A DNA stretch of 63,949 nucleotides, the filler included, from Raillietiella orientalis (lineage: Eukaryota): assembly GCA_036172245.1 (NCBI GenBank). It is 7 parts of 7 records of this genome, joined end to end, with 100 filler letters (N's around TTAATTAATTAA, not from the genome) between each part and the next. Parts side by side here need not be neighbours in the genome. Positions count along the whole stretch, not along the records: positions 28,988 to 38,324 come from JAYWIR010000281.1; 6 more parts are not named here. One strand, 5' to 3'. Within the stretch, counting starts at the first letter, position 1. Every line of letters starts with the position of its first letter. Shown one piece after another: positions 9,586-46,955 of the stretch. A program made the translations under genes and the position numbers. The notes under the pieces were generated by a model. That model was given only the letters and a program-made list of their open reading frames with translations. It was not told the DNA's origin and did not search any database.

Positions 9586-9594
9586 TCGTATGAA

Positions 9595-20840: not shown

Positions 20841-20850
20841 GATCCCCAAC

Positions 20851-24369: not shown

Positions 24370-24516
24370 AAAGCAGAACTCTAGTGACTTCAAAAAACTT
24401 CAGAGTGAAAAAGTGATAGTGTAAAGAATGAATGAGAGTTCGAATGCAAAAATTGTAGAGTGAATGATACCATACAGAAAATAAATTTACCCCACCCCTT
24501 GTGGGACTTGGGGAAA

Positions 24517-24638
24517 ATCGTAGGCGAGGAAGGCGACTGAGCCGCGATTATTGCTAGTTGAAAACTTTACCCAATACCACGCCAAGGCAGTGCGTAAAAC
24601 CACTGCCGAGGCAATTTTTGTGTGCCCTGACAGGGCAA
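24517..24638 (+). ncRNA. U4: U4 spliceosomal snRNA lacking its first ~19 nt
   Basis: ATCGTAG...GCGATTATTGCTAGTTGAAAACTTTACCCAATACCACGCC matches the metazoan U4 core as I recall it; intact k-turn 5' stem-loop; central stem-loop; Sm site AATTTTTG (24613-24620); terminal hairpin TGCCCT-GAC-AGGGCA. Confidence 0.93.
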
Positions 24639-24657
24639 GTGCCTGCCGAAGATTAGT

Positions 24658-26571
24658 GTGGAAGTGACTGTGCCACCGAGGGAAATACCCGACAGCAGCA
24701 GCAGCAGCAGCGCCGAAGGACCCGAGGTGGAAGTCCTCCAAACAAGAAGTGCGGCAGCAACGGCAGCCGCAAGGAGGCACAAGGAAGAAGTGGAGCAGCC
24801 GTCGACCCCCATGGAAGAACACATGGAGGTAATATGCGGCAGTGGCGAGGAGGCAGCGGCGACGCCGAGGGTCGCGCCCGCGGCAGGCTTTGCTGCGCCG
24901 GCGGCGGCGATGCCGAGGGTCGTGCCCGCGGCGACGGCGATGGAGGTCGTGCCCGCGGCGGCGACGCCGAGGATCGCGCCCGCGGCGGGGAAGGTCGTGC
25001 CGGCGGCGGCGATGCCGAAGGTCCCGCCTACGGCGACATCGACGACGGCGACGACGAGGGTTGCGCCCGCGGTGGCGGCGGCGTCCCAGGCGGGAGCCGC
25101 GGGCGTCCACGCGGCGCACACAGGGCAAGGTGCGACGCCATCTTGCTCGGCGGCGGCGGCGAAACCGCCGTTTTCGTATGCGGCGGTGACGGCGGGGCAG
25201 GCCTCTGCCCTGCCAAACAGGAAATTCGGGAAGCCTGCGAGTGAGAACATCACTCGAACCAAAGAACCCATGGTGAAGTTGAGTCCAGCGTCCAAACCCA
25301 TCACCTTTAAAACCGGGCTGGTCCGGTTTAATAACATAAGGCAGGTGTATTGTGCGCTGTATAGGACAAATGTCGACTTTGATCGATTGCAGGCGATAAT
25401 CCCGAACTCAGCGGGATTCATCCTGTATACTGACTGCGAAGAGCTGCGGGAGGCCCTTATCGAAAAGGGCATCAACATTCAGGGGAAGATGGTGCAAGGC
25501 ATTGGCGAAATGCCTTACACGACAGTCTTCCTAAGTGGAATTGGCATCCTCACCGAGAGAGAAGCGATATGGGACTTCCTGTCCCAATACGGAGAAGTTC
25601 TGGAAATGAAGACCCAGAACATCTCCGGAGACATCTTCTCGGGCGAGTTGATCGCCAAAATTAAATTGAAGGACGGGGCGCAGATCCCAGGCAATGTCCA
25701 TATCGACGAATCGTCGCAAGACGTTTCCGTCAGATATAGGCAGCAGCCGATCTTTTGCACCGGCTGCAAAAATTTTGGCCACCGGATGGGCGCGTGCCCT
25801 AGGTCGCGCTGTTTCCGGTGCGGAAAGATGGGCCACGTGGTCCGAAATTGCACCATGCCCGAAGTTTGCTCGTTCTGCAAACAACCCGGGCATGCGAAAT
25901 GGAGTTGTCCGGAGTTTGCTAACTACCGGACAATCCGTGGAGAATCCCCCGTGAGGGAAAGGGTGCTAGCCGAGGTGATTAAACCTCAGCTAGCCAAACA
26001 AAAGAAGGTGAGGGAGGCAGCTCCGGTCTCGGCGGACGGGTTCGTCGAGATAGGGAAAAAGGGGAAGAGGAAGATGCTCGTGAGGGAGCAACAAACCCCC
26101 CCTACTCGTGAGGTTGCAGCAGTGGAAGGCGAGAAGATGGAGGTGACAGAGGAAGTGGTGAAGATGCCGGAACCCACCCCGGAGTCGCAGGAGGCCCTGC
26201 AACTCACCGAGGAGGTGGTCAAACTAGCGGAGGAGGTTCGTCAAGGCCAGACAGAGGCGCAACAGGAGCAACTCCTGACCCGCATCTCCGAGGCTCAAGA
26301 CGAAGTCAACCGTATGGTTGTGGAGCCGGAGCGAGAGAAGCTGGAGGCCCAGCTCTCGGAAGTCAAGGCGGTCTACTGCGCGACGGTCTCCCTGGAGACC
26401 CTCCCGCGCAAGGTGATCGCCAAGGCGGAACGCTCCGGAGAAGATCCCGAGTCGACCGACCACACCGGCACCGAGAGCGATGCCGGTAGCGAAAAACTCA
26501 CTTCTTCAACGGGGAAACTAAACAAGTCTTTCCAGCAGAAGAAGTTAAGGAAGGCGCGCAAGAACAAGTAG
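24658..26571 (+). CDS. ORF1, intact reading frame with Ala/Pro-rich N-terminus and three CCHC knuckles
   Basis: 637-aa ORF; frame open from 24631, first ATG at 24811; CTGCKNFGHRMGAC, CFRCGKMGHVVRNC, CSFCKQPGHAKWSC. Confidence 0.9.
   Translation: MEVTVPPREIPDSSSSSSAEGPEVEVLQTRSAAATAAARRHKEEVEQPSTPMEEHMEVICGSGEEAAATPRVAPAAGFAAPAAAMPRVVPAATAMEVVPAAATPRIAPAAGKVVPAAAMPKVPPTATSTTATTRVAPAVAAASQAGAAGVHAAHTGQGATPSCSAAAAKPPFSYAAVTAGQASALPNRKFGKPASENITRTKEPMVKLSPASKPITFKTGLVRFNNIRQVYCALYRTNVDFDRLQAIIPNSAGFILYTDCEELREALIEKGINIQGKMVQGIGEMPYTTVFLSGIGILTEREAIWDFLSQYGEVLEMKTQNISGDIFSGELIAKIKLKDGAQIPGNVHIDESSQDVSVRYRQQPIFCTGCKNFGHRMGACPRSRCFRCGKMGHVVRNCTMPEVCSFCKQPGHAKWSCPEFANYRTIRGESPVRERVLAEVIKPQLAKQKKVREAAPVSADGFVEIGKKGKRKMLVREQQTPPTREVAAVEGEKMEVTEEVVKMPEPTPESQEALQLTEEVVKLAEEVRQGQTEAQQEQLLTRISEAQDEVNRMVVEPEREKLEAQLSEVKAVYCATVSLETLPRKVIAKAERSGEDPESTDHTGTESDAGSEKLTSSTGKLNKSFQQKKLRKARKNK
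24850..25095 (+). repeat. imperfect ~27-bp coding tandem repeat (AATPRVAPA-like)
   Basis: recurring GCGGCGACGCCGAGGGTCGCGCCCGCG variants. Confidence 0.75.
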
Positions 26572-26587
26572 AACTCTCTCCCCTTTC

Positions 26588-28887
26588 ATGGCCTCGTCGC
26601 TGTCCAATGCCAGGAGGATTAACATCGCCTCCTGGAATGTGAATGGACTGACGGACCAGGGAAAGAGAAAAAGTGTCAAGCGGACCATCGCAAGACAGGA
26701 TGTGGTGTGCCTACAAAAAATCCACCGTCTCGGGCAGCAGAACGCCCTAGAGATGGAACGCCGATTCGACGGACAACTGTTTGCCAGCGAGGGACAGAAG
26801 AAGACCATGGGGGTGGCGATCCTCATCAAGAACGAGCTCGTCCACACCATTTTGGAAACCTTCTGTCCGGTACCTGGCAGAGTAATCGGCGTGCGACTGT
26901 CCTGGTCCAGTAACGTTCACCTCTTCCTGGTGAACGTCTACGGACCGCACAAGATCAAGCATCGGTGCGCGGAGAAACTGCAAGAAGAACTCCGCAAACG
27001 AGTGGCACCGAAGGACATAGTCATCGTCGCTGGGGATTTCAACATCCTTGATGAAATCAAGTATTCTCAGGATGCAAGGGGAAGAGCGGCGTATCGGCGG
27101 CTATCCGACGAGTTCGGACTTTTGTGGCGAACAGCTAGCCACAAGCCGATCGATCACGTCCTCCACAGTGCGGAGATAGACAACCGCATCCAGGGTTTTC
27201 GCGACATTCCACATCTGTTGTCCGATCACCCATTGGTACGGTTTACACTCCGCACTGAAAATCCCCGTAGGGAAAAGGCCACCAGGGCGGCGCTCATCTG
27301 CATGCCCGCCTGGTTCGAAACGCTTCCCTGTCACCAGGAGGTCATCGAGGCGATTCTGCGGGACACCACCATCCGCAGAGTCGCCGACTGGGACAGGTTG
27401 AAGCACAGGATCCATCTGTTCTGCAATATGCAGTATTTTTGCAAGCGCATGAGGCAGGAAGCGTACCGGGAGCTGAACATCCAAGATCGCTCCCTCTCGA
27501 AGTACTTCGATCAGTACGAGAGTCGGTACGTCTTCCAGAACGAGAGTCAAGGATGCAGATATCTTCTGCATCCAGTGCGACGGCCAAGAGCGGCACACGT
27601 CGGAGGATATCGCGAAAGCCTTTCACAGGCATTACGCGAGACACTTCCGACGACAAGATCTCTGCCGCTCGAGTCAGCAAGCCTTCCTGGGTTACCTCGA
27701 GAAGAGGACGGACGACCTCCAAAGAAGTAGACTGGAGGAGGAGTTCTCCGAAGAAGAAGTGAAGACTGCGTTTGGACAGCTTCGCAAGGATGTGGCAGCA
27801 GGCCCTGATAGTGTACCCATCTCGCACTATCAGCGGTACCTGCACGCCTACCTGCGTTTGTTCCACCAGTTGACACTGTGCATCCGAGAAGAAGGACGAC
27901 TTCCGGAATCCTTCTACGAGAGCAGTATGAGATTGCTGTTAAAAGGAGGCGATCTCACGCAGATCGCTCAATGGAGGCCGATCTCGATCCTAAACTCAGA
28001 TGCCAAGTGGTTGGCGAAGATCTGGTCCAACCGCTTAGGCAGGGTCATGTCGAGGCTGATCTCTCCGGTCCAGACGTGTGCAGTCCCAGGACGACACATG
28101 TCTGACAATGTCAAGTGCGCCCAGGCCACCGTCGGACTCAGCCGATACGTCGGCGAGAACCTGGTGCTGGTGTTCACTGACATGGAGAAGGCCTTCGACT
28201 CCATCGACCACGGGATGCTGCTGAAGGTTCTGGAGAAGCTAGGGCTTCCGGAACACTTCAGCAACTTCGTGAGGGCGGTACTCCAAAACCAGTACTGCCG
28301 TATCAAAATCAACGGCCAAGAGACGGCAGCAATTAGGATGGAACGAGGAGTCCGGCAGGGCGACTCGCTAAGTCCAATGCTGTTCGTCATATACATGGAG
28401 GCGCTGTCTTCTTACATCGAGAGAAGCGGTCGTCTATCAGGGATTTCCATTGATGGTCAGCACCTGACCCATCTGGCATACGCAGATGATCTCCTCTTCT
28501 TCATCAAGGGAGAGATGAGTCAACGAGCGTTCCTGGATGTGGTCGACCTCATGGAACAGGGACTGGGCTTGAAAATCAACGCCCAAAAGAGCCAGCTTTT
28601 GCCCGTCGGAATCCTGAACCTCTCCACTCTCACGGGGAATGGATTCCGCACGGTGGAGACGGCCAAGTACCTGGGAGTCTACATCGGCGACGACTCTGCG
28701 TCGAAGCTGCTGTGGACGGAAATCCTGGGGAAAACGGCCAAAGAAGCAGCAAAGTACACCCGAGCGGACTTTAACATGAAGCGAAGAGCCAACCTGTGGA
28801 ACGGAGTACTTCTTCCAAAGGTACTCTTCGGGGCGGCCTTCGCAAGAATGAATAAAGATACCACGAGGGAAGTAGAAAAGCTGCAAA
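26588..28887 (+). pseudogene. ORF2 EN-RT, frameshifting deletion near 27540, catalytic LQE changed to LQK; 3' partial
   Basis: ORFs 26588..27730 and 27759..; comparison with E10. Confidence 0.87.
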
Positions 28888-28987
28888 NNNNNNNNNNNNN
28901 NNNNNNNNNNNNNNNNNNNNNNNNNNNNNNNTTAATTAATTAANNNNNNNNNNNNNNNNNNNNNNNNNNNNNNNNNNNNNNNNNNNN
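28888..28987. other. artificial contig linker
   Basis: same 100-nt linker. Confidence 0.99.
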
Positions 28988-31900
28988 GATGCTTGCAGTC
29001 CTTGCGCTTAGGGACAGCCCGCTCGGCGTGAAGATTCGTCGCAGCAAGTCTCTTGCGGTGTCCACAAGATGCATTAGTGCTGTTGTTAGCCTACGCCACG
29101 GTCCTTGTAGGAAACCGCAGTCCAGAAGTAGGTGCGGAATCGACTCCGTCGATCCGCACCGAACGCAGTTCGCAGACGCAAGTCCCCCGCAGTCACGATG
29201 CCAACGCTCGTTGCACTGAAAACCCCAGTGAACGAAAAGCAGCACGGCTTGTTTCCAAACAAGGGGGAGCAGCGAACTGTCAATACTCTGTTAAGGGACT
29301 ACAAGTTCTTCGGGGGTGACAGCAAGTTCTTCTGCCCACCGGAGGAGTCCCATTGCAGTAGCACGAGGAGTGGCGGCGTCCGCCAACTCACTCGTCTTCC
29401 AGGCTCCAAGGAGTTTGGTTTTTCCCGCTATCGTGCAGGAAACCTCCCACCTCGCCGGTTGGTAACTGTCGTTTCTTGCCATGAGGGCAGACAGCGCTGC
29501 GACAAGAGGCGTGGCAGCCATGGTAGAAAACCTCACCTCGTCCTGCAGTACTTCTTCCAAGGATCGTAAAAAAAATTGGCGCAGGGGACAAAGAATTTCA
29601 GGGCGTATTACTTGGAACGCCGCCCAGGATTCAACAGACTCCTTCTGCCAAGCTTCAAAGTTCATTGGGCGGCGGGAGACCCACGACTGAGCTTCCAGAA
29701 GTGCGGTCAACTGCCGCAAAGGAAACCCGAGACCCCGCTTCCTGTATTGAGTGCCCGGCAAAAGCGAGAGCAGTACTCCGCTGCCGGCGCATCTTCGCAG
29801 GAGAATGCGCGCAGGCAAACACAGGGGAGATGTACACAGCTGGGCACACAGTGCCAGCAGTCGGAACTGCACCTGCAGTCCGATTCGCTCCATTGACAGG
29901 ATACCGAAACCAAAATCCTGACGTGGAGCACCCAAGTCTTCAAGGCGGATCCTGGGTCTCCCCGGACCCCAGAAAGCGTTTCTAAGCACGCGTTCAGCCC
30001 GCTGTTTTGCCGCAGAGGGGGGGTCCAAAACATAAAACAGGGGACGGAGGAGGGGGGCCACAAAGGTGTTCCAAAGAGTCGCCCGTTCCTGCGAGGTAAA
30101 CTTGCCGTTGATGAACGGGCTGACAACCAACTCTGCTTTCTGAAGGCAGTCCGACCACCCTTCGGCTGCGCCGAGATCGCGCCACAAAACGCAATGGTAC
30201 TCAAAGTACCCGCCCGTGGGGATCCCCAGGCGGATCCAGTCGGACTGCCCCTCCCACGACGTACCCACAGGAACGACCATGCTCTTCTCTCTGTTCACGC
30301 TCACGCCCGCTCCCCGACGCATCAGGTCGAAGAAATCCTCGACACTGGATGCCGGGTGGACATGGGGAGCAGAAGAAGCAGGTCATCAGCGTAGGCGGCC
30401 ACGGCAGGCGTTCCCGGGCAGGAGCTTGGCAAGTGAGACAGCGTCATTCTGTATGCTCTAAGCACCAACTCAAACAAGATGCTGAAGAGCAACGGGCTGA
30501 AGCTATCACCTTGCCGAATGCCTCTGCGCACGGGAATACCGCACACGCGGCAGTTGCTGAAAGAAATACAGGTTAGCGCGTGACGCCAGCAAGCGTGCAA
30601 ATAAAGCAGTAGATGCGCCGGAAATCCAAGGCGTTCCATAAGCCTTAATAGCAGCTTCTGCTTTACGCAGTCGTACGCCTTGTGGAGATCGACCGCGACC
30701 ACCAAGGCGCCTGGCGTTCGCTCCTGCCGTCGGCGCCTGTTCTTCTTGCCTGCAACAGTGACTTTCGCAGCTGCCTGGCTTTCCAGCGCCACAACTTCCT
30801 GCAGCTGCATCCATGTACGCGCGAAAAGGATGTTCGCCTCCAAGGATCGTCTTGGAACCGCGTAGGTTTGTTCCGGGCTCACTACAGATTCCGCGATACT
30901 TCCTAACCGCGCGACCCACAGCTTGGATTTCAACTTCACGTCCAAATTCACCAAGGTGATCGGACGCCAGTTGTTAAGTTGACGCAAGTCTCCGTCTTTC
31001 GGCAGGAGACGCACCTTCGCTGAGCGGAAGGAATCCGGGACATTCCCGGATTCACTCATCAGCGTCGTTAGTCTCAGCCTCAAGGGAATGAGCCTCACTG
31101 CAAAGCACTGATAAAACTCTGCAGGGAGCCCATCCTCGCCTGGCGCCTTTCGTCTCTTCAGCCCTGCGATGGCGGACGAATATTCATTTGCCGTGAAGGG
31201 CTCGTTGAGACGTTCGCGTTCCTCCTCGCCGACAACACGAGCATCCTGAGACAGGAGTATCTCAAAGAGAATATCCTCCGTCGGTGATTACGCGTACAGC
31301 GAGGAGTAGTAGCGATTGACAATGCGGCGTTCTTTTCATCGGCGGATCGCTCGTGGTTTTTTGCGAGTTTTTGCGGACGACGCTTTTATTTGCCGCTGCG
31401 GCTTTTCGTGCAGTGGTCTCTTGAACCCGACGAATTTCCGCTGCGGCTCTTTTTCTTACAAGTACCGGGCACTTTTTGATTTAGTGCCCGGAATCTTTGC
31501 AATAGCGGCATCTTGGAGTAAGACACCCTTTAGTTCGGTGCCCCTCCTTGCCGCACTGCTCGCACGCGCGACTCTGGCCTATGAACCACAGGTGAACGAC
31601 CGTGCCGTTCACCTGCAGCTGCTCAGGCGCAACACGCCTGTTCGCAATGGTGATCCGCGCGGCAGCTTCTCCAATGTGGACAGAGGGGGAATCCTTTAGA
31701 GGATTTGGCCTCCTCCACAGAGCGTGCACGGTGGCGAAATTCGCCAGCACACTTACGACATCGCGGTCGGAGATTTCCGGTTCGATGTCGCACAATTGAA
31801 CGACAAAAGAGTCGTCCATCGCGGTAGGTAGGACTTCCTTGCCATTGATGGTCAACGGCGTACGGAGAAGGCGCTGCACAAGTGCTGCGTTCTTGCACCA

Positions 31901-32333
31901 AATCTTCGTATATTCCAACCTGCCAGCAGGCATCATGGCAAGGAGTTCCTCCTCGCGAACGCCTATCCGGACGAGCTCATCTTTGAGCTCACGACCGATT
32001 CTCCCGTTAAGTGGCCCACTGACCTTATAACGGAGTGCAGGCATGTATCCTGATGACACATATGCCTGCAACTCCGCATCGCAGGGTCCTGGTCTTTGGG
32101 AGGTAACAACGGCGTAACTCCTCACCGGGGGCGAGGAAATCATTACGGAGGATGCGACCACTTCTAGTGCAGCTGAAGTGCATCCAGTGGCTTGCTCCTT
32201 TACACTATACTGTATACTGTCCATGTTGCACTATGCTACTTGGCAGATTGCACAGGAACACAAAAGTGCGAGCGAAAACGCAGGCACAAAGTTGCCCGAT
32301 CGTTGGCGCGGATAGACGCGGAAACACGTCTGC
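28988..32333 (-). mobile_element. E12: L1/Tx1 element with ORF1 (31481..32224) joined at ~31330 to ORF2 linker/RT/C-terminus (EN absent)
   Basis: CEQCGKEGHRTKGC; NWRPITL, DLHKAYD, GIRQGDSFSP, YADD, CVRCGSTESIPHLLLDC; 5' GCAGACGTG at 32333. Confidence 0.87.
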
Positions 32334-33645
32334 ACTGTACGAGCCCAAGAGATCAAACGGATCTCCGGAGGGCGGCTATGCTACAGGTGTGGGAGAGCGA
32401 AAAGTTGCGGTGTAGCCTACCTGCTTCGGACAGCCGTCGAGGCCGCGGCTCGGGGCGTACGGTTCGACGATCACGGTCGTGTCGGCCAGCTGACTCTCAG
32501 GTGGTCCGACTCGATCGATCTGATCGTCACGAACGTGTACGCACCGAGCTGCGCGGACCTGATGAACAGGAGTGCGAGGAAAGAGTTTTTCCTTGCCCTC
32601 CGGCGAGACTGGCTGACCGAAGCAGGCGTGCGGAATGACCATCTGGTTGCAGGCGATTTCAACGTTCGCCTGAAACCAGATGGGCAGAATCCCGAGCGTG
32701 ACCTGGTCAACGAGGTGTGCATGGCGGTGCACACCTGTAATTTGTTGGCCAGTGCACCGGGGATGGAAGACAGCATTGACCACGTGTTTCTTGACGAGCA
32801 CCTGTGCCCTCGCGTGGACAGGCGCGGCAAGTTACCGTGCGAGCTGTCCGACCATCGCCCGCTAGTCCTCGAGATCCATCCGCGCGACAGGGGCCCCCCT
32901 CGTCAGCGTGGCGTCTACCAGGGGACTGGCTGAAGCTCCCGAACGCGGCGGAACATCAACGCACGTTCATACGGAGCTTCAGGCTGCGGACACTCCAGGA
33001 TTGGGACCGCTTCAAGCGGTCGGTACAGTTCTGCGACCAGTTCCCTCTGCACAGCCTACCTACGGGTTTTGGGACCGGGATCCGTAACGAACGAGCCTAC
33101 CTGCAGGCCGTCGTTACGCCAGGACCCCCGACATCCGCAGGCTGGCGGAATACAAAGCGGTAGCCGAGAGGCAAGCCTGGAAGTCTGGATCGGCCAGCTT
33201 ACTTGACGATCAGGGCCAGGAGCACTCGGCACCTGCCCAAATCCGCGGCCTGCTGCGGAGTTACTACTCCTCCCTGTATGCCAGGGCACCTCCGGAGAGG
33301 AACGTCTCACGACTCCTGCTTCCGGAAGGCACTCCAGCGATCGGGGAGGAGCATAGAAAGACCCTTGACGAGCCTTCCACGATGGACGAGATCCTCTCGG
33401 CCATCGGAAAGCTCAAGAGGCGAAAGGCTCCAGGGGAGAACAGCCTGCCCGCGGAGTTTTATCAAACTTTCGCGGCTGAGCTCACCCCCCTGGTACAGCA
33501 ACTCACCTTGCTGATACGCGAAACAGGTGACGTTTCCGCCTCGTTTCGTTCGGCAAAGGTGCGGCTCCTTCCTAAGGGAGGAGATCTGAGGAGCATGAAC
33601 AACTGGCGTCCCATCAAAATAGTGAATGCGGACGCCAAGTTGCTA
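32334..33645 (+). mobile_element. E13: internal ORF2 fragment (EN to RT NADAKLL), cut by insertions on both sides
   Basis: NVYAP, GDFN, IDH, SDH, KAPGENSLP, NWRPIKIVNADAKLL. Confidence 0.87.
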
Positions 33646-35988
33646 GTTGCCACCCAGTCACGCCGGGGCGTTTATTAAAAATTCTTTTTGATTCGTAGTA
33701 CGAGGCCCCACTACGGCCAACTCAACTGGACCTGCCGGGTCGCCGGTACGCAGACCGGCGCGACTCTCCTCGGCAGCGGAAGGGGGTGGGGGAAAAAACA
33801 AAAAGAAAAATAAAACATAAAAACAAAAAGATTTGGGAGGGTTGGGGAGGGATCACTGACCACTGAGAAGAGGGTCCATCCTTCGCAGGATGCCCTTGAG
33901 GTCCGTCCGTATAATTCCCAGGTGGGGCCATCTGGTCACAATCCGCAGGTAGCGGACTGCAAGTACGACGGCATCCCTGTCGTGACTCGGTCTTTCGACG
34001 TTGCTCCAGCACGTCACAATCCCGCGTACGCAACAAAGTGCAGCCAGGGCAGCGGCTGGACGCAGGGCATCATGCAAGAACAGAAGCCGAAAAACGTCTC
34101 TGGACTGGCTGCCCTCCTGGATCCGTAGGGAGGCACGAAGACGTTCCCACAGGGGTCGGAGGGCAGCACAATCAACAAGGAGGTGGGGGAGAGTTTCCCG
34201 TTCCCCACACCTGATGCAGGTAGGATCTACTCGACCCCTGGTCCAGTGATGGCGGCGTGCGTTGCAGGGTAGACCCCAATGCAACAACAGAAGCGCCGAC
34301 TTCTGTTACTTCAGGAGGAGGATCCTAGATCCAATTAATACCGGGGGCCACTTCAGGTCATCCGGCTGGATGCCGAGTAGCTCGCCCCATCTCTGCAGTC
34401 CTCTCGGCTGGACACTAGGGGTACTGGCGTCCGCCAGTTCACCCGTGGACCAGGCGCTAAACAACTTCTCCTTGCCTGCGATGCGACAGGAGACTTGCCA
34501 CCTAGGCTTGCGGCTACTCGAGAGCGCCCTCCTCAGGAAGGGCATTGCCGTAGCTAGGGGGGTTGTCTCTGCCCACGTGCTTCTCGCGGGACACTGGAGT
34601 ATCTTCAGCAGAGTGCAGAGGGAATAGGCGCCGCGTCGCACGCAGTTCCACATCTCTCCGTTCTGCTGGTTTATCTTCGCCCACGTGCCAGCTGTCTCCT
34701 CCAGCCATGAGGAGGAGTTGGCGGGGCTGCATACCATCCAGCCGTTTTCCTTAGCCAGAGTTGCCATGCGTCCCAGGAGAAGTCCGCATCTCTTGATCTT
34801 CCTGCCACGGCACAGAAGATTGGACGCGAGACCCTCCGTTCCGGATACACGGCTGGCCGGAACGCACCAAGAAGTGCTCCATAACTTCGCTGCGATGGCG
34901 AGGGTTCGCCACCGCAGCTGAATCTCTACTCGCTCCATCGTCAAGAGGCCGAGACCGCCATCCCGACGTAGAGCACACAAGTCCTTCAACGGGACTCGGG
35001 GCCTCCCTCTTCCCCAAAGGGCAATTCTCAGGAGGTCCTTTGTCCGTTTTTTCAACTCACTGGGGACGGGGCAAACAAAAAGCAGGGGGCGGAGGATAGG
35101 AGCCGCGAACGCGTTCCATACCGCGGCCCGTTCCGGAAGGAGAAACTTGTCTTCCAAGAACGGGCCGATCGCCATTTACACTTTTTGGAGGCAGCCAGAC
35201 CACGCTTTCGCAGGGGAGTAGTCCCCCAACGGCACACCAAGGTACTTCAAGCACCTCGCCGTGGGAATCCCCAAGCGGACCCAGTCCTGCTGCCCAGCCC
35301 ACGCCGCACCGACTGGAACCACCGTCGACTTCGCCCTGTTCACCGTAAGTCCGGTACCGCGGCTAAGCAGATCGAAGAAATCCCCGATCGCCTTCGCCGG
35401 GGTGGACATCGGCAACAGAAGTAAAAGATCCTCGGCGTATGATGCTACGGCGGGCGTGCCGGGGCACGAGCTCGGCAAGGGGGGCCAAAGTCACCCTGTA
35501 CGCTCTCAGCACCCACTCAAAGTAGGTGCTAAAGAGCAGGGGACTGAGGCTGTCGCCCTGGCGTATGCCCCGCCGCACCGGCACGCCATACAGCTTTTGA
35601 CCGCTGAAAGAGACGGTAATCATCGCATTCCGCCAGCAAGAGCGCAGGTAGGAAATCAGGGAGGGTGATAAGCCCAAGCGACCGAGGAGCTCCAAGAGGA
35701 GTTCCTGGTCTACACAGTCGAACGCCTTGTGGAGGTCGACTGCGAGTGCTAGGGCCCCCTTCCCCGCCCGGAAGTCCCTTCCCAGCCTGACTGGCGGCCC
35801 CAATGTGTTGTTGCCGACTTTCTTTATCCCTTTCTTTTCTCTTCTCTGCAGGTGCACCCATGTGCTTGCGAAGAAGAGGTTGGCATCCATACTTCGCCCG
35901 GGAACCGCATAAGTCTGCTCCGGGCTAATTACGGATTCTGCCACCTGCCCCAGACGCGAAGCTCATAGCCCTGCTATCAACTTGGCGT
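33646..35988 (-). mobile_element. E14: family A 3' half (RT AKLI to 3' hairpin)
   Basis: DLHKAFD, GIRQGDSLSP, YAED, near identity to E1 including 3'UTR. Confidence 0.92.
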
Positions 35989-38283
35989 GCGGACGTGTTT
36001 TTGTAGCGCTCCTCCGCGCTTGGTGTAAAGCGGTTGATTTCGATTGTGTTTGTGTGTGAAGCATCTGCGGTGTCCAATGGCAGAAATACCTGAGGACACC
36101 GCGATGGATATAGGAGGGGAGAGGCTTGCTCCTCTCCCCAACCCACGGAGGTGGGGGCAACCGCCCCCACGGAGGCGACGGCAGCCGCACCCCTGAAAAA
36201 GGGGGCAACCGCCGCCTCGGAAGTGAGGGCAAAGGCCCCCTTGTGAAAGGGTACAAAAGCCCCGCTGGAACAGGGTGCAACCGCTCCCTTGAAAAAGGGG
36301 ACAACCGCAACCCTGGAAAAGGGCGCAACCGCCTCCTTGAAAAAGGGGACACCTGCACCCTCGAATGCGTCTTCGGCATCGCCGAAGACCTGGAGTTCAG
36401 TAGCTGCAGCCCCATCCCCTGCAGCCCTCGCCGGGCAGAAAGCCTACCTTGAGCAGGGATACAAGCCGTCTCTGATATACAAGGTAGGCAATCTGTTTAT
36501 CGGGAACACCGCTCGCAACTTCGAAAGGGAGTTGCAGCGGTTGAATGTAAAAGAGGAAGACCTGGAAGGTCTATCCGTGTTGAGTGGTGGTCAACGGGTG
36601 GAGGTGACTTGCAGAAATGCAAGCCTTTCTCAACACCTCCTGAATACGCCAATCACACTGGAAGGCCGAAAGGTTTTCCCGGTAACGGAGGATCGCTCCG
36701 TGGTGACGCACCTCACGGGAGTCACCTTCCGCATGTCGAAAGCCGACGTGCAGGAGGAACTCGGAAAATACGGAACTGTTCACGCGCTATGGACCAAGCC
36801 CAACGTCTTGCAGAGTTACGGAAGATTGTTTAGTGGCATGGCTGGTGCGCGTGTAACCGTCCACGAAAACGGTGGGCTACCCCACAAACTAGACGTCGGC
36901 AACGAGACCGTCGACGTCTGGTACGTGGGCAAGCCCAAGTACTGTGGACACTGTGATGCCACAGGGCACCTGAAAAAGCGGTGCCCTCACATCCACTGTT
37001 TCCACTGTGAAGAGAAGGGCCACCTCCGCAAAGTGTGCCCGAAGCGCGAACCCCCGACTCCCGCTGCCTTGAAAAAGGCCAAAGGAAACGCGCTGGGGCT
37101 ACGGAAAAGCTTGCGAAGGCACCCGTGAGTCGGAATCCACAGCCGGAGCCCGAGCCCGTGCAGCGAACGCCGGTCGTGGAATCTACTGACAACGCTGAAA
37201 AGAGCAAAGGCTGGCAGAAGGCGAAGCCTAAAGCCAAGAAAATTAAGAAAACCGAAGGGTCGACAGCGGAACCCGCGACGTCTCCTTTAAATAGGAGACA
37301 ACGCCGCGCGTTCATCCGCGAATGTTCGGTCGCTATGGAGCGTGTGGAGATACCCGAGACCGCCACCGGGGGAGATATCCCCCGCGTCGACGCCGACGAT
37401 AACGCGATCACGGAAGGCGAACCCTCTGTGCAAACAGAGGGGGAACCGCGCGACGCGCTCGCCGCGATCGACGAGGCCGCCTTCCAGCAGGCGGCGGAAA
37501 AGCTCGCGGCCGAACTCGCCGACCGTGAGAACGGCGCGCGAAAGGCCTTGCGAAGGCCGGTCGCGACCAGGGCACCTGCGACAGGTGACCAAGACCCGGA
37601 TGCCGGAAGTGCGTCCTCTTCCACGGAGGCGCCTCCGAAGAAGACTGGACGGAAGTCCAAGAATCCCAAGAGGCGCATCCCGACGAAGAGCGAGGGGGAC
37701 GGACCGGCAGCCGAGGGGGAAGCCGGCAGAGTGGGAACGGAGGGAGGAATTTTCCCACCCTCCGCCACCGAGCAGCCGGCCACCCCCATGGAGGAGGGGG
37801 AGCAGGTAGTGCATTGCCTTTCCTTCCACCGGTGGAGCCTGCGGAAAAGATGGTCATGGAAGAGGGGGAGCAGACAGCTGATAACCGCTCCCCCCTGCCG
37901 TCCAACGCAGTCAAGGAATCGGCCCCCATGCAAGAGGGGAAGCAGGTGCGTGAAGCATGCTCCCTTCAACCGTTGCGGTCCGCCGAGGAATCGGCCCCCA
38001 TGGAGGTGGGAGAACTGCTGGGCGGTGCCCCCATGCCTCCATCCGTCCCGCCCGACCAGGTGGCGGGAGCCCCATTGCCACTTTCCCGGGAATAACACCT
38101 GGGCTCGCCTGTCGCCGTCGATTGCGTGTGGCATGTTGGAACGTCCACGGGCTGCGCGACGACAGCAACAGACGGGACACGGCAGCCACCCTGCGTGACT
38201 TCGACCTGGCACTCCTGCAGGAGATCCACGTGATCACCGGGGAGAACGCCCAGGAGATCGAGAGGATCGCAGGGGGGCGGCTG
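35989..38283 (+). mobile_element. E15: family A 5' half (5'UTR, frameshifted ORF1 from ATG 36077, start of EN)
   Basis: GCGGACGTG 5' end; ORF1 homologous to E2; WNVHGL, LQEIH. Confidence 0.9.
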
Positions 38284-38324
38284 GTTGTCACCCGGGTGCG
38301 CCGAGCGTTTATTATACACTATCC
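38284..38324 (-). mobile_element. E16: extreme 3' end of another element, antisense in E15 EN
   Basis: minus strand AATAAACGCTCGGCGCACCCGGGTGACAAC. Confidence 0.8.
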
Positions 38325-38424
38325 NNNNNNNNNNNNNNNNNNNNNNNNNNNNNNNNNNNNNNNNNNNNTTAATTAATTAANNNNNNNNNNNNNNNNNNNN
38401 NNNNNNNNNNNNNNNNNNNNNNNN
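38325..38424. other. artificial contig linker
   Basis: same 100-nt linker. Confidence 0.99.
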
Positions 38425-38447
38425 CTACCTTGTACCGCCACTCAATC

Positions 38448-38492
38448 AATTCTTATATAACATAGAACTTGCAATTCTATAAACTCAAGAAT
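38448..38492 (-). tRNA. trnC: mitochondrial tRNA-Cys(GCA), armless
   Basis: ATTCTTG-agttt-ATAGAA-ttGCAag-TTCTAT-gttata-TAAGAAT-t; next to trnY. Confidence 0.7.
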
Positions 38493-38508
38493 ATTTATAT
38501 TAAATTAA

Positions 38509-38568
38509 TGATAAAAGATTCCATCATTAATAAATTTACAATTTACCGCTCTTCTCAGCCATTTTACC
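38509..38568 (-). tRNA. trnY: mitochondrial tRNA-Tyr(GTA)
   Basis: GGTAAAA acceptor, D arm, gtaaa-ttGTAaa-tttat, 3-bp T arm. Confidence 0.88.
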
Positions 38569-38573
38569 ACCCT

Positions 38574-38627
38574 AAGATTATAAGTTAAATAAACTATTAA
38601 CCTTCAAAGTTAAAAATATAAAATCTT

Positions 38628-38628
<1 letters not shown>
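38574..38628 (+). tRNA. trnW: mitochondrial tRNA-Trp(TCA), T-armless
   Basis: agtt/aact D stem, ttaac-ctTCAaa-gttaa, TV-replacement loop. Confidence 0.88.
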
Positions 38629-40164
<1,536 letters not shown>

Positions 40165-40169
<5 letters not shown>

Positions 40170-40219
40170 TATGGCAGAATTAATGCACTGGACTTAAAAT
40201 CCATCAATAATATTTAGTA
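40165..40219 (+). tRNA. trnL2: mitochondrial tRNA-Leu(TAA), copy 1, T-armless
   Basis: TCTAATATGGCAGA start, tgga-ctTAAaa-tcca. Confidence 0.85.
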
Positions 40220-40227
40220 ATAAAAAT

Positions 40228-40632
40228 ATACTAAAAAAACTAATCTCCACCCTCAAAAACTTTTGGAATGCACTCCCATTACTTACACCCCTAATATATA
40301 CATTCCCATCTCTATCTATCATTTTCCTATTGAATAACAACTACATACCCCACCTAATTATCAAATTAACCATCAAGCAATGACTACAATCATGAAAACA
40401 TACAATTCGCAAAATCTTCAAATCCAAATCCAACATACTCGTCAAAAACCCTACAACCATTAATAAATATCCTTCATACACACAATGAGCCATAAAACAA
40501 CCCCATCGTATATCCCGTCTCACACCACAACCCATCATTAAACAAACAATTAATCTAACCAACTCATCTACCAATTATTTCCACAACACAAATTACATAA
40601 TAAATCAAAGTTCAACATGTCACATCCTCTAA
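40228..40632 (+). CDS. 134-aa mitochondrial ORF, diverged truncated cox2 paralog (possibly a pseudogene)
   Basis: open from ATA 40228 to TAA 40632 in code 5 (three TGA-Trp codons); ungapped match to cox2 TM2 region. Confidence 0.7.
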
Positions 40633-40679
40633 CCCCACACTCATAATTACCCATTAATCCACCCATCATAACTAAACAT

Positions 40680-40733
40680 ACTAACATAGCAATTCAATGC
40701 ACTGGACTTAAAATCCATCAATAATATTTAGCA
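40680..40733 (+). tRNA. trnL2: mitochondrial tRNA-Leu(TAA), copy 2
   Basis: 36 nt identical to copy 1 including anticodon arm; D stem gca/tgc retained. Confidence 0.75.
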
Positions 40734-41390
40734 ATAACATCACTCATATTTCAAAACGCATACTCCCCTCTCATAGAACACCTCATCCTACTACACGATT
40801 ACATCATAATTACTCTAACCATCATCTGTTTAATAATCCTGTACAACACTTTCATCTACCTTCACAATTCCTACACCAATTTCATATTACTCAAAAACCA
40901 CTTCATAGAACTCATCTGAACCTCCCTACCCTCACTCATCCTCCTACTAATCATACTCCCCTCCTTACACATCCTCTATCTCCTAGATACCAGCTACCTA
41001 CCCTCCCTAACTATTAAATCAATCGCCAATCAATGATTCTGAACATACGAATATTCAACTTTCAAAAAAACCAAATTCGACTCCTTCATAACACCAAACA
41101 GAAACCTTCTACGACTACTAGCTACAGACAACCACCTAATCTTACCTTATAATACAATAATTCGCATAATCATCACGTCATCAGACGTTCTTCATTCATG
41201 AACTATCCCATCCCTAGGAATCAAAATCGATGCCATTCCCGGACGACTTAACCAACAAGCCATCTTCCTAGACAAACCCGGCGTATTATTCGGCCAATGC
41301 TCCGAAATTTGCGGCATCAATCACAGATTCATACCCATCCAACTTAACTCAGTAAGAGCAAAAGATTTTATCCACATAATCAAAAATTAG
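40734..41390 (+). CDS. cox2: cytochrome c oxidase subunit 2
   Basis: [39 protein letters not shown]. Confidence 0.97.
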
Positions 41391-41448
41391 AATTTTAGTT
41401 AAAAAATAACAATAACTTGTCAAGTTGTAATTAGTAAAATAAATTCTA
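41389..41448 (+). tRNA. trnD: mitochondrial tRNA-Asp(GTC)
   Basis: AGAATTT/AAATTCT acceptor, ataac-ttGTCaa-gttgt. Confidence 0.88.
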
Positions 41449-41459
41449 GAATTTATTCA

Positions 41460-41606
41460 ATACCTCATTTAACACCAATATTCTGACTACCCCTATACAT
41501 CCTCTTTACTACCCTAACCATAAGCATAACCCTACTCATCCCTATCTACATTAGACCATCCCTATCCCATATACAACACAAAAGAAATACCAAATGACTA
41601 TGATAA
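41460..41606 (+). CDS. atp8: ATP synthase subunit 8
   Basis: MPHLTPMFW...KWLW then stop; ATGATAA 7-nt overlap with atp6. Confidence 0.88.
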
Positions 41607-42234
41607 ACTCCATCTTCACCCCCCTAGACCCCTATACTATAACCCCACCATATTTCATTCCTACTTCCATCGGTATCTTACTAATCATTTCCTATCCTAT
41701 ATGGTTAATACCGACAATATCCAAACTATCCATTGCCGAGCCAATAAAAATATTAACAAAACCATCAACAACAACCTACACCGTCAAACCACCACATCAA
41801 TTAAAATATTTATTGCCTTACTAACTACCATTGCCCTCCTAAACTTATCAAGACTTACCCCCTATACATTCCCCTCATCAGCCCATCTATTCCTATCAAT
41901 ATCCCTCGCCATCCCACTATGAACATCTAGACAAATATTCGCCATCATAAAAAATTACTCAAACTTCCTAGCCCATCTCACTCCCCAAGGAACCCCTCCT
42001 TCACTTTCTCCATTTATCCCCTTACTAGAAATCATCAGACTAATAATACAACCCATATCCCTATCACTACGATTAACAGCTAACATCACTACCGGACACA
42101 TCCTTATCGTTATACTCTCCGACAAACTCACAAATCTCATTCCATCCATTCCCATTATAATACTAGAAATCACCATAGCCTTTATTCAAGCTTATATTTT
42201 CACCACACTAACATCAATATACACAAAAAAATAA
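41600..42234 (+). CDS. atp6: ATP synthase subunit 6 (apparent 1-nt deletion, probably near 41750-41762)
   Basis: IFTPLDP, AHLTPQGTP, LRLTANITTGH, FIQAYIF. Confidence 0.92.
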
Positions 42235-42239
42235 CCACA

Positions 42240-43010
42240 ATAACAAACCACCAACCCTTCTTCATCCAACAATACAGACCTTGACCTATTCTTATCTCTA
42301 TATCACTCCCATCAATAACCCTCTCCCTAACATGCCTCATACACAAAATATACTCACCCATCATCCTATGTATTATAACCACAATTTTAAACATACTCCT
42401 CTGGGGAAAAGACATGAAACGAGAATCCTCATTTATCGGTATCCTTCCAATAAGAATAATAAAAACATTTAAATTTGCAATAATCATATTTATTATCTCA
42501 GAAATCTTCTTATTCGTCTCCTTCTTTTGATCATTCTTTCACTCTAGACTAAGAGTCAACCCACAATTTAGGCTTTCTTGGCCACCAGTTAGTCTCACCA
42601 TACCCGCAGCCATAGAAGTACCCCTATTTAATACCATCCTTTTACTAAGATCAGGCATTTCAGTAACATGAACACATCACTCCCTCCTAAAAAAAAATTA
42701 CTCCATCTCACTCCTCTCTCTACTCATTACCATTACAATAGGATCAATATTCCTTATGACTCAAGCCATAGAATATTTTATACTAAATTTCTCTATTGCA
42801 GACTCAATCTTTGGCTCAACATTCTTCATTGCAACAGGATTCCACGGCTTACATGTACTTGCCGGCCTCATTTGCCTCATTCTATCTATAACTCAAATCT
42901 TTTCACTCTCCATTACCAATATCCACCACCTGTCATTTGAACTCCCTCTTTGATACTGACATTTCGTAGATATTGTATGACTATTTCTATTCTTATTCAT
43001 ATACCTATAA
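42240..43010 (+). CDS. cox3: cytochrome c oxidase subunit 3
   Basis: SPWP, SEIFLFVSFFW, ATGFHGLHV, WYWHFVDIVW. Confidence 0.96.
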
Positions 43011-43014
43011 GTAT

Positions 43015-43069
43015 ACTCTTTTAGTATATACAGTACAAATAACTTCCAATTATTAAGAAATAAAGAGTA
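43015..43069 (+). tRNA. trnG: tRNA-Gly(TCC), T-armless
   Basis: ACTCTTT/AAAGAGT, aataa-ctTCCaa-ttatt. Confidence 0.88.
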
Positions 43070-43124
43070 ATTCTTCTAGTGTAAAACAACACATTATCCC
43101 TTCAAGATAAAAATCTTAAGAATT
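43070..43124 (+). tRNA. trnE: tRNA-Glu(TTC), T-armless
   Basis: gtgt/acac D stem, ttatc-ccTTCaa-gataa. Confidence 0.8.
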
Positions 43125-43177
43125 TGAGTTAAGCTTAAGCATATCACTGTTAATGATAATCAGTTCCCCAACTCAAA
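43124..43177 (+). tRNA. trnN: tRNA-Asn(GTT), T-armless
   Basis: TTGAGTT/AACTCAA, tatca-ctGTTaa-tgata. Confidence 0.85.
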
Positions 43178-43189
43178 TTTCCTACCAAT

Positions 43190-43244
43190 TGTCCACTATT
43201 TCCTAAGCACTTTCAACGCTTCGCTCTATATAAGCTAAAAAGAC
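43190..43244 (-). tRNA. trnF: tRNA-Phe(GAA), T-armless
   Basis: gctt/gagc D stem, aagcg-ttGAAag-tgctt. Confidence 0.82.
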
Positions 43245-43246
43245 CT

Positions 43247-43301
43247 AAAATTATAGTTAAAATAATAACATTTGTTTTGCAAACAAAAATTTCTAATTTT
43301 A
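43247..43301 (+). tRNA. trnA: tRNA-Ala(TGC), T-armless
   Basis: AAAATTA/TAATTTT, tttgt-ttTGCaa-acaaa. Confidence 0.87.
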
Positions 43302-43324
43302 CTCCAATCTATACATCTTACAAT

Positions 43325-43378
43325 GAGACAACATCAGGGACTTCTAATCCCTTAACAGTGGCCTACCATTTTGTCTCT
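43325..43378 (+). tRNA. trnS1: tRNA-Ser1(TCT), D-armless
   Basis: GAGACAA/TTGTCTC, aggga-ctTCTaa-tccct, T arm gtgg/ccat. Confidence 0.87.
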
Positions 43379-43389
43379 TCTACCAAGAA

Positions 43390-43722
43390 ATATTATTTTT
43401 ACCATCTCTACTTATTATCATCATCATTACCTCTCTTGCAATAATCATTAAAATTACACCTCAATTCAATTACAATACTTCAACTCCCTTTGAATGTGGA
43501 TTCGATCCAAAAAACAATGCACGCTTCCCATTCTCCATCCAATTTTTTTAATTACAATCATTTTCTTAATTTTCGATATTGAACTAGCCATCATTCTTCC
43601 CCTCCCACTCCTACCATTATCCCTCACACTCTCTTCAGCAATTGCATTAACATCACTAATTCTCTTCTTAATCTTAAGATTAAAATATGAACTTTACACT
43701 GGTTCCATTTCATGAATATTCT
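43390..43722 (+). CDS. nad3: NADH dehydrogenase subunit 3 (T-run at 43543-43549 one base short)
   Basis: PFECGFDP, RFPFSIQFF, FLIFDIE; probable incomplete T stop. Confidence 0.92.
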
Positions 43723-43723
43723 T

Positions 43724-43773
43724 AGACAAAAGTGATAACACAGTTAGTTTCGACCTAACCTTAAGTTCGTCTC
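43724..43773 (+). tRNA. trnR: tRNA-Arg(TCG), T-armless
   Basis: AGACAAA/TTCGTCT, gttag-ttTCGac-ctaac. Confidence 0.85.
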
Positions 43774-43937
43774 TTACTAGCACACTCCCGGAGATATGAC
43801 TCAACATAAAATTAAAAATCTTATTCCGTTTTGGATTCCGAGACAAATTAAACCCCGTTGCCCCCTCCATTATAACAATACAACCCCATAAAATACCAAC
43901 ACCAATTATAACCCAATCTAACTCCAACCATTTAATC

Positions 43938-45296
43938 TTAACTCCATAAAAAATCATTCACAAGAATCATTCACATTAAACAACACATAATAAAATAACC
44001 AATAAAATATTTACCTTCCATAACATTATACACAATACTCTTCTTACCTACAGTATCAATTACCCCCACATACCACACACCCCCTCACTCCATTCACCCC
44101 TTATCAACTATCTCCACCACCATGCCAACATACATTAATCAATTTCTCAACATCAACCCCCTTATCAACTTCAAACCCATAACTACCACTACCACATCCC
44201 CCCAGCTTACAAACAAACTTGCAATACCCACAAATAATAAACCAACAATTATTCTTACAATTGCTGCATATTTCTCTATAAAAAACAACACAAATCTTTC
44301 AACCTCCTCCACGACTAATATACCTCCTACTACCACTATAAAATTTAACCTCATTAATACAATATCCATAACTCGCAAATCTTGCCTTCCATCATGTATA
44401 TGAATAACTAATCCTGCACACATAAACATCAATGATTTAAACACAGCATGAATCAATAAATGATAATATACTAACACTCCTATACCTAACCCCAACCCCA
44501 TAAACATCATACCTAACTGCCTTAACGTTGAATATGCAATAATCTTCTTTACATCAACCTCTAATCTTCCCATTAATCCCGAATATACCCTCGTTAAAAG
44601 ACCCCCATAAATCACTACATTGCTCACCATCCCAATTTCATTAAATCGAATCATCAAATACACCCCCGCAGTTACTAACGTCGATGAATGAACTAAAGCC
44701 GACACTGGCGTTGGCGCAGCCATAGCCTCTGGTAATCACGCACTAAAAGGTAGCTGAGCACTTTTAGTCATTCTCATTAACACCACAATTCAAAAACATC
44801 AACCACCCGTATCTAACCTGCTAAACCTCCAAGTGCCCCTTATCAACAACCACCCAATACCTATCAATAAAATTCTATCTCCTACACGATTACTCAAAAA
44901 AGTAATTATACCCCCATAATTAGAATTACAATTTATATAAAAAATAACTAGACAATACGAAATAATACCCAGTCCATCTCAACCCAAAATAACAGTTACT
45001 AAACTACCACTCATAATTAACAATAACATCCTCACCACAAACCAAAACACTAACACAAAAAACCACTTCTTCTTCCACTCAATATACTCCCATCTATACA
45101 CCATCACTAAAAAAGAAATAACCATTACATACCTCATAAACAATAAACATTTATCATCCAAAATAAACAACAAACCTCATTCCATTCCCCCTAACCTTAT
45201 CAATGATCATTCCATCATCATCACCCTACCTCAACAAATAAATCACAAACTTACATTCACGGCTATCATCCTAGCCAATACCACTATATAATTCAA
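43938..45296 (-). CDS. nad5: NADH dehydrogenase subunit 5, 452 aa, with in-frame internal deletion
   Basis: GWDGLG, AMAAPTPVSALVHSSTLVTAGVY, KKIIAYST, HAVFKSL, DKGWME. Confidence 0.92.
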
Positions 45297-45351
45297 AGCC
45301 AACAACTACCTACGATACCACAAATCGTTATTCTTATTAAACTATCTTGAC
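45297..45351 (-). tRNA. trnH: tRNA-His(GTG), T-armless
   Basis: acgat-ttGTGgt-atcgt, canonical position between nad5 and nad4. Confidence 0.85.
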
Positions 45352-46895: not shown

Positions 46896-46955
46896 TAATT
46901 TTAGTCCTGGACTATCTATCAATAAATCTCCAGAGCATAGTCATTAACCCCTTGC

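Follow-up and report, generated by a model that had tools for sequence, protein, structure and literature searches.

In a 63,949-nt stretch of the Raillietiella orientalis assembly (GCA_036172245.1; hereafter the window), long interspersed nuclear elements (LINEs) begin and end at one 14-nt sequence, TAKCAACTTGGCGT, which in contig 4 is the antisense of a conserved motif in the reverse transcriptase (RT) coding sequence of LINEs. This arrangement probably reflects sequence-specific target-primed insertion at a single site of 14-15 bp, accompanied by a duplication of 14-15 bp. The element is most likely a novel form of site-specific LINE, one that would have its home in the RT motif of LINEs.

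The window comprises seven contigs, placed longest first (1-9594, 9695-19256, 19357-28887, 28988-38324, 38425-47624, 47725-56877 and 56978 to the end) and joined by linkers of the form N44-TTAATTAATTAA-N44 (9595-9694, 19257-19356, 28888-28987, 38325-38424, 47625-47724 and 56878-56977). As the contigs are merely joined, elements on either side of a linker have no physical adjacency. Contigs 1-4, with a GC content of about 0.53-0.60, are crowded nests of retrotransposons without long terminal repeats. Their LINEs carry a first open reading frame (ORF1) with CCHC knuckles and a second (ORF2) that combines an apurinic/apyrimidinic endonuclease (APE), an RT and a weak zf-RVT C-terminus. A preliminary description of this DNA had pointed out a pair of junctions in contig 4 (28988-38324); a third junction lies in contig 1. 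The elements concerned are as follows.

28988-32333, minus strand: E12, a LINE truncated by the contig start, with its 5′ end GCAGACGTGTTTC at 32333
32334-33645, plus strand: E13, a fragment holding the C-terminal part of the APE and the N-terminal part of the RT, with the end ...RPIKIVNADAKLL
33632-33645, plus strand: the 14-mer in E13, ACGCCAAGTTGCTA, codons of D-A-K-L-L; its minus-strand reading, TAGCAACTTGGCGT, comes directly after the E14 3′ end
33646-35988, minus strand: E14, a family-A 3′ half that begins in the RT motif (AKLI...) and has the 3′ end ...AATAAACGCCCCGGCGTGACTGGGTGGCAAC
35975-35988, minus strand: the 14-mer in E14, ACGCCAAGTTGATA, codons of A-K-L-I; on the plus strand, TATCAACTTGGCGT stands directly before the E15 5′ end
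35989-38283, plus strand: E15, a 5′ half with the 5′ end GCGGACGTGTTTTT, a 5′ untranslated region, ORF1 with a CCHC knuckle and the start of the APE
38284-38324, minus strand: E16, with the 3′ end ...AATAAACGCTCGGCGCACCCGGGTGACAAC, truncated by the contig end
1-1702, plus strand: c1a, a second family-A 3′ half with the end ...CCGGGTGGCAAC and an open ORF at 137-1495
1703-1716, plus strand: the third 14-mer, TATCAACTTGGCGT, with nothing else separating the 3′ end of c1a from the 5′ end of el1717
1717-4590, plus strand: el1717, an E15-type 5′ half with ORF1 and APE, starting GTTTTTTCC

Three exact junctions at one reverse transcriptase motif

The 14-mer TAKCAACTTGGCGT has three exact matches in the window, whereas none of 100 shuffles contained any match, and all three copies touch LINE termini, namely two 3′ ends and two 5′ ends. 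The two contig 4 junctions that the preliminary description had read from the sequence proved correct to the nucleotide. At the 3′ end of E14, the plus strand reads ...AATGCGGACGCCAAGTTGCTA (33632-33645) and then GTTGCCACCC..., the reverse complement of ...GGGTGGCAAC, and at the 5′ end of E15, ...CCCTGCTATCAACTTGGCGT (35975-35988) passes into GCGGACGTGTTTTT without a gap. A frame check of E13 and E14 likewise bore out the proposal that both copies are antisense RT codons: the E13 frame ...W-R-P-I-K-I-V-N-A-D-A-K-L-L ends at 33645, and the E14 frame AKLIAGL runs downward from 35988. When the intact RT of contig 3 was compared by tblastn, its residues 28-182 corresponded to 33202-33666 (plus strand) and its residues 172-304 to 35986-35516 (minus strand); both contig 4 breakpoints thus lie at one RT residue. 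The motif is indeed a conserved one, in that the NSDAKWL block of the intact contig 3 RT aligns with NIDAKIL of human L1 ORF2p.

The third junction (1703-1716), absent from the preliminary description, consists of a family-A 3′ end (...GGGTGGCAAC), the 14-mer and an E15-type 5′ end, such that c1a, the 14-mer and el1717 form a head-to-tail tandem with a single 14-mer as spacer, an arrangement that fits repeated use of one site. Read in the orientation of the insert, each of the three 14-mers lies just past a 3′ end, just ahead of a 5′ end, or both, as a target-site duplication predicts. The two 3′ halves, c1a and E14, are 95.7% identical over 1682 nt; E14 lacks poly(A), and its ORF is split into three pieces. 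The two 5′ halves, el1717 and E15, share about 79-86% identity (78.6% over 2312 nt), and el1717 starts 8 nt short of the GCGGACGT start. We regard their 5′ junctions as independent, since the upstream context differs, identity is about 79% and the 5′ ends lie 8 nt apart.

The flanks had been taken for a target-site duplication. Identical 14 nt do stand beside 3′ and 5′ ends in the same orientation, but no insert has both of its ends in the window, and for that reason a duplication of 14-15 bp can be put forward only indirectly. A C always precedes the 14-mer, which means that the duplication may measure 15 bp, with the element end at ...GGCAA. The duplication made by R1 elements is 14 bp as well.

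The 14-mer belongs to the target

We considered whether the 14-mer is part of the element, either as a 5′ leader or as a 3′ transduction, and rejected this, as the RT reading frame of the host passes unbroken from the 14-mer into more than 1 kb of further sequence. In contig 4, the host element extends beyond the far side of the 14-mer for 1.3 kb in E13 and for 2.3 kb in E14. Its variable base tracks the host, reading TAG beside E13 and TAT in E14. This agreement of the third base with the host marks the flank as target DNA and not transduced sequence.

Relatives of the host elements were found in a public run, X1 (share 0.10), which may stem from the source organism or from a relative, as Logan contigs at 88-99% likeness, with 185 short pieces at 88%; what we say of X1 concerns the matches listed, which cover 8 of its 199 pieces and 6 of its 94 loose ends. 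Among them, E13 relatives read ...TTGCTAGCC. Three X1 contigs match E13 to 33642 and continue with TATGCCAAATTGTGGGCTGAGCG, and one matches it to 33646 and continues with CCAAGATGTGGGCAGAGCG; these contigs encode uninterrupted RT, with D-A-K-L-Y-A-K-L-W-A-E-R and D-A-K-L-L-A-K-M-W-A-E-R. A further contig (record 7) matches the E14 RT from 35715 to precisely position 35988 and is followed by 83 nt unlike E15. Judged from their sequence, X1 contigs that run through the site behave as empty sites.

Site occupancy and specificity across the group

Seven RT copies in the window cover the motif. Both copies with the exact 14-mer (E13 and E14) are interrupted there, compared with none of the five that carry 3-4 mismatches (Fisher p = 0.048):

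C2plus: ATGCGAAGTTGCTT, 3 mismatches, intact
E12: ACGTGAAGTTGAAA, 3 mismatches, intact
f: ACGTCTAGTTGTTC, 4 mismatches, intact
B1 and B2: ATGCCAAGTGGTTG, 4 mismatches each, intact

The direction of this pattern is the one that sequence specificity predicts, and it suggests such specificity in a small sample. The termini in the window are distributed as follows.

5′ end of E15, 35989: preceded by the 14-mer
5′ end of el1717, 1717: 8 nt shorter, preceded by the 14-mer
5′ end of C2minusA, 12010: GCGGACGTGCTTT, elsewhere
5′ end of E12, 32333: GCAGACGTGTTTC, elsewhere
5′ end of f, 9584: TCGGACGTGATTT, with only 10 nt of flank visible
3′ ends followed by the 14-mer: c1a, 1702; E14, 33646
3′ ends elsewhere: C2plus, 15005/6; e, 5457/8; d, about 4586-4593; C2minusC, about 17427-17432; E16, 38284

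In the young family (E14 and c1a), both 3′ ends are followed by TAKCAACTTGGCGT, as against none of the five more diverged 3′ ends, and two of the five 5′ ends (E15 and el1717) are preceded by it. The off-site copies are about 67-87% identical to family A, and their 3′ ends adjoin varied points in the ORF1, APE, linker or RT of other LINEs; no common nick motif was evident by eye among these other 3′ flanks. E12, for example, meets the APE region of E13 with its 5′ end, antisense and away from the 14-mer; E16 lies antisense within the APE region of E15, again away from the 14-mer, and E15 is interrupted there (38283/38284). El1717 is itself interrupted at about 4586-4593 by the 3′ end of fragment d (minus strand). 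Specificity, if real, would therefore be a property of a sub-lineage, since diverged relatives insert elsewhere. The idea of a fixed site thus holds for the three exact junctions, but the wider group with the same termini is not bound to it.

Conserved termini that lie inside another LINE are on the opposite strand at eight of nine junctions (32333, 33646, 35989, 38284, 12010, 15006, about 4590 and 5458) and on the same strand at one (about 17430; binomial p = 0.039). A general antisense bias separate from the 14-mer is therefore possible. Searches for further copies gave zero matches in metagenome, genome and viral contigs for a degenerate 3′-end pattern, and no relative in a locus search by the protein of the family-A ORF2 C-terminus.

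Self-targeting was also part of the original proposal. E15 sits in the RT of E14, which may or may not be of its own family. The 5′ halves (E15 and el1717) end within the APE domain, and the 3′ halves (E14 and c1a) begin at the RT motif; because the halves never overlap, they are not assignable to one family. E13 and el1717 share only 66% identity in the APE region, which is evidence against placing E13 in the E15/el1717 type. E13 and E14 are about 67-70% identical in comparable RT regions. Of the claim that a LINE targets the conserved RT motif, what stands is carried by the junctions, the identity of the motif and the contrast between interrupted and intact copies; the insertion of a family into itself and a binding of the wider group to this site do not share that footing.

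Lineage and termini of the elements

Pfam matches to Exo_endo_phos and RVT_1 were obtained in ORF2. Against solved structures, human L1 ORF2p was the top match both for the intact family-B RT (E = 9e-46) and for the APE domains (E = 1e-6 to 6e-10), a coarse comparison that does not separate L1 from Tx1, as the structure set covers few LINE clades. The APE matches at E ≤ 1 comprised the human L1 endonuclease and bacterial exonuclease III-type chains; two A-like APE domains, searched to E ≤ 1, and family B, searched to E ≤ 0.01, gave no R1Bm or TRAS1 endonuclease chain, which is weak evidence. The elements have the N-terminal APE and L1-like RT in ORF2 that define the L1/Tx1 group. They lack the 3′ poly(A) of the L1 clade, with no run of A in any of seven 3′ ends, all of which finish with ...CCGGGTGGCAA(C) or variants about 25 nt past AATAAA. 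A zf-CCHC domain is present in the ORF1 of el1717, C2minusA (10994-11947, minus strand) and B1/B2, and is weak in E15; CCHC zinc knuckles in ORF1 are a feature of Tx1, though not exclusive to it. A protein search with the intact family-B RT yielded 21 matches, all at ≤29% identity and uninformative for clade, and an Atlas look-up gave zf-RVT-type clusters only.

The 3′ ends at 1672-1702, 33646-33676, 14975-15006, 5427-5458, 17427-17460 and 38284-38314 combine AATAAA, a predicted hairpin and a lack of poly(A). The hairpin is predicted as CCGG-loop-CCGG, and its 5′ arm shows changes from C to U that keep G-U pairs. An ACGCC/GGCGT mini-hairpin at the 3′ end was rejected, its loop being too short; folding favours the stem based on CCGG/CCGG. 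In LINEs of the stringent type, the RT recognises its own 3′ end, and AATAAA, the hairpin and the absence of poly(A) would fit a LINE of this kind.

A model for insertion into the motif

In the model that we favour, the element would belong to an L1/Tx1-like lineage with APE and RT, bounded by the termini 5′-GCGGACGTG ... AATAAA-hairpin-CCGGGTGGCAA(C)-3′; the corresponding end patterns proposed for the group are 3′ ...GGCGTGACYGGGTGGCAA and 5′ GCGGACGTG. The putative target, 5′-ACGCCAAGTTG(A/C)TA(G)-3′, encodes the D-A-K-L-[I/L] finger motif of LINE RTs. The element would enter antisense to the target RT (predicted target AATGCGGACGCCAAGTTGATAGCAGGG), and CTAKCAACTTGGCGT would flank both sides of inserts, with antisense RT beyond. 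A first nick in the RT sense strand after ...TTGMTA (...ACGCCAAGTTGMTA) would provide the 3′ OH that primes complementary DNA (cDNA) from the RNA 3′ end. The second nick would fall in the antisense strand after ...GGCGT (...CAACTTGGCGT), 14 nt away, and the 3′ overhangs would then be filled in, leaving a copy of the 14-mer at either side of the insert. If one of these two copies were hit again, a head-to-tail tandem with a single spacer would result; if the RT of an existing insert were hit, the outcome would be an alternating plus/minus/plus nest. If the contig 1 tandem arose by reuse of a duplicated copy, most of the recognition would reside in the 14-mer together with one flank. What we infer here is where the nicks fall, that the site is duplicated and that the endonuclease carries the specificity.

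The 8-nt difference between E15 and el1717 at the 5′ junction would fit microhomology: the target end ...GGCGT could pair with the cDNA complement of GGACGT, which lies within the first 8 nt of the element, giving ...TTGGCGT/GTTTTT, the junction that el1717 shows. We also observed that the first 8 nt of the element (GCGGACGT) are a near-complement of the antisense target strand GCGTCCGC across the presumed second nick (35989-35996 and 33625-33645), and that seven of these 8 nt (GCGGACG) are identical to RT sense sequence right at the edge of the 14-mer. This pairing, noticed post hoc, could aid 5′ joining or be due to chance.

Taken further, the element might be an obligate "LINE of LINEs", which we consider unlikely. 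Such an element would home to the selectively constrained RT motif in the way that homing endonucleases exploit conserved catalytic motifs; each insertion would destroy one RT gene, possibly of its own family, resulting in replacement and not growth. Site and orientation might then be read through pairing of the element RNA with genomic RT copies, which would also explain the eight of nine antisense junctions.

Several observations weigh against a dedicated insertion site. Among the matches listed from X1, one uninterrupted RT bears the exact 14-mer (loose end 33646), and a contig at least 88% like the E14 3′ end enters a different flank (loose end before 33651). Five of seven 3′ ends and three of five 5′ ends that share the conserved termini are found elsewhere, on elements with more diverged bodies. 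The junctions come from three loci only, none with an insert that has both ends, and the duplication is not directly seen. E14 and c1a could derive from one insertion through segmental duplication, which would leave three independent events. Finally, the assembly is fragmented, and these contigs are short and made up of repeats only.

Alternative explanations

In the main alternative, site choice would be real but set by nucleic-acid pairing instead of the endonuclease, an explanation that we find rather improbable. In one version, read-through transcripts carrying the downstream 14-mer would anneal to the nicked target, as has reportedly been proposed for R1Bm; every donor copy at the site is followed by the 14-mer, so its read-through RNA would be complementary to the primer. 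In the other, the RT-coding RNA of the element would pair with the antisense strand of genomic RT copies, and the displaced sense strand would be nicked to serve as primer, which would also account for the antisense orientation. The capacity of GCGGACGT to pair with GCGTCCGC across the proposed second nick, with one G-U pair, is in keeping with such a role for pairing, as is the opposite-strand position of eight of nine terminus-to-host junctions (binomial p = 0.039). However, the breakpoints are exact to the nucleotide at all three loci, a better fit to cleavage determined by a protein, and the divergence of E13 and E14 (about 67-70% identity in RT) would limit pairing to a short patch. The complementarity of the 5′ end was, moreover, spotted after the fact.

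Quite improbable, in our estimate, is the absence of any true specificity, whereby a few ancestral events would have been copied by segmental duplication or gene conversion on top of a general antisense landing in LINEs. With the flank included, E14 and c1a share 95.7% identity, and a single event may therefore underlie both 3′ junctions; the majority of related termini lie at other sites, and in nests this dense any insert will hit another element. The two 5′ junctions, by contrast, are not copies of one event, given that E14 RT lies upstream of one and the c1a 3′ end upstream of the other, that identity is about 79% and that the ends lie 8 nt apart. Even one 3′ and two 5′ junctions around an identical 14 nt would be unexpected without a site preference, with zero matches arising by chance.

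An inversion could also be imagined, in which contig 4 arose from a tandem like that of contig 1 through recombination between the internal RT 14-mer and an inverted spacer, E13 and E14 having once been a single element. The spacer between the elements is an inverted copy of the RT 14-mer, and the N-terminal part in E13 and the C-terminal part in E14 sum to one ORF2. Yet 14 nt is very short for recombination, the copies differ at one base, and the tandem spacer would still require site-specific insertion. In addition, the APE of E13 is only 66% identical to that of el1717 (the 5′ half of E14 itself is not seen in the window). We judge this inversion very improbable.

An assembly artefact, with chimeric contigs joined at repeats, would suit repeat-only contigs of about 9 kb in a fragmented assembly, but is hardly credible when the joins fall exactly at conserved termini and not within shared repeats, when a 14-nt overlap is shorter than the overlaps by which assemblies usually join, when the same junction type recurs in two contigs with different partners, and when X1 contigs, among the matches listed, break off exactly at 35988 and 33642/33646. 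Insertion at a specific site in the RT motif remains the reading that we prefer.

Other features of the window

E12 is an internally deleted copy: on the minus strand (31317-31993), ORF1 continues to reference residue 311 and is followed almost directly by RT residue 46, with the entire APE domain missing. In contig 1, the fragments d (minus strand) and e (plus strand) are short A-like 3′ pieces arranged head to head, joined at 5131/5132 with their 3′ ends outward; the pair (about 4590-5458) lies between the convergent el1717 and f, and may stem from double priming or from nested insertion with deletion. Contig 3 (19357-28887) holds two head-to-tail copies of another LINE family, B1 and B2, of which B1 is largely open and B2 is frameshifted between APE and RT. 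Identity is about 84-85% between their ORF2 proteins and 82% over two 300-nt stretches of DNA. From the B1 ORF2 stop at 23865 to the start of the B2 ORF1 frame at 24631 is less than 0.8 kb, and this spacer contains TTGCTAGTTG and ACGCCAAGG, which resemble the target motif.

Contig 5 (38425-47624) is a mitochondrial fragment of metazoan type, read with TGA as Trp. Its plus strand encodes cox1, cox2, atp6 and cox3, and its minus strand has two ORFs of the Proton_antipo_M family that are probably nad5 and nad4; the strand is very poor in G, with a GC skew that reaches -0.73. ARAGORN in default mode detected zero tRNAs in contig 5, and TRF likewise reported nothing there. Contigs 6-7 (47725-63949) consist of satellite arrays with a unit of 277-278 bp, in 33, 5 and 20 copies with 88-94% matches.

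Comparison with known systems

Site-specific LINEs are known to target ribosomal DNA (rDNA), small nuclear RNA (snRNA) genes, telomeres, microsatellites and one DNA transposon. In full-text literature, we found no LINE that targets the RT-coding motif of LINEs, a weak absence given that subscription journals and Repbase Reports lie outside this coverage. If our reading is true, a transposon parasitises and inactivates its own class, which bears on how transposon families limit one another and on how heterochromatin comes to contain inverted nests and tandem arrays. If the 14-bp specificity resides in the APE endonuclease, this compact enzyme would also be of interest for targeted integration.

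Among Tx1-group elements, the cited passages describe Tx1L of Xenopus laevis as targeting a site inside the Tx1D transposon, with an endonuclease that recognises about 10 bp (PMC4494074, PMC1919474), and Keno, Kibi and Koshi as inserting into an snRNA gene and microsatellites (PMC4494074). As far as these passages go, the elements share with the present one an APE-type LINE organisation with ORF1 and ORF2 and a defined target sequence. The targets differ, being a LINE RT coding motif, entered antisense, in the window and a DNA transposon, snRNA gene or microsatellite in the Tx1 group. Specificity has been located in the endonuclease for R1Bm, TRAS1 and Tx1L, according to the passages available (PMC1919474). 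R1 (R1Bm, in insect 28S rDNA) is there characterised by precise cleavage of both strands, a conserved multicopy target, a fixed duplication and independence of poly(A) (PMC1919474), features that resemble the present case, in which cleavage and duplication are putative; its target is rDNA, whereas here it is a LINE gene.

Nesting as such has precedents. Zepp and ZeppL of green algae are described, in the parts cited, as inserting into their own copies and forming clusters or tandem arrays rich in 3′ ends (PMC8226300, PMC3446292). The outcome is similar, but those parts state neither a fixed RT site nor an antisense rule for Zepp, and the host here is apparently an animal, as indicated by the mitochondrial contig in the window, and not a green alga. 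CNL1 of Cryptococcus neoformans prefers its own copies in subtelomeric arrays, as the cited text reports; unlike the present element, it is related to R2/MoTeR and linked to telomere repeats, and the same text calls its sequence specificity undefined (PMC12810828). The site-specific APE LINEs thus resemble the present element in how they work, and Zepp/ZeppL and CNL1 resemble it in outcome.

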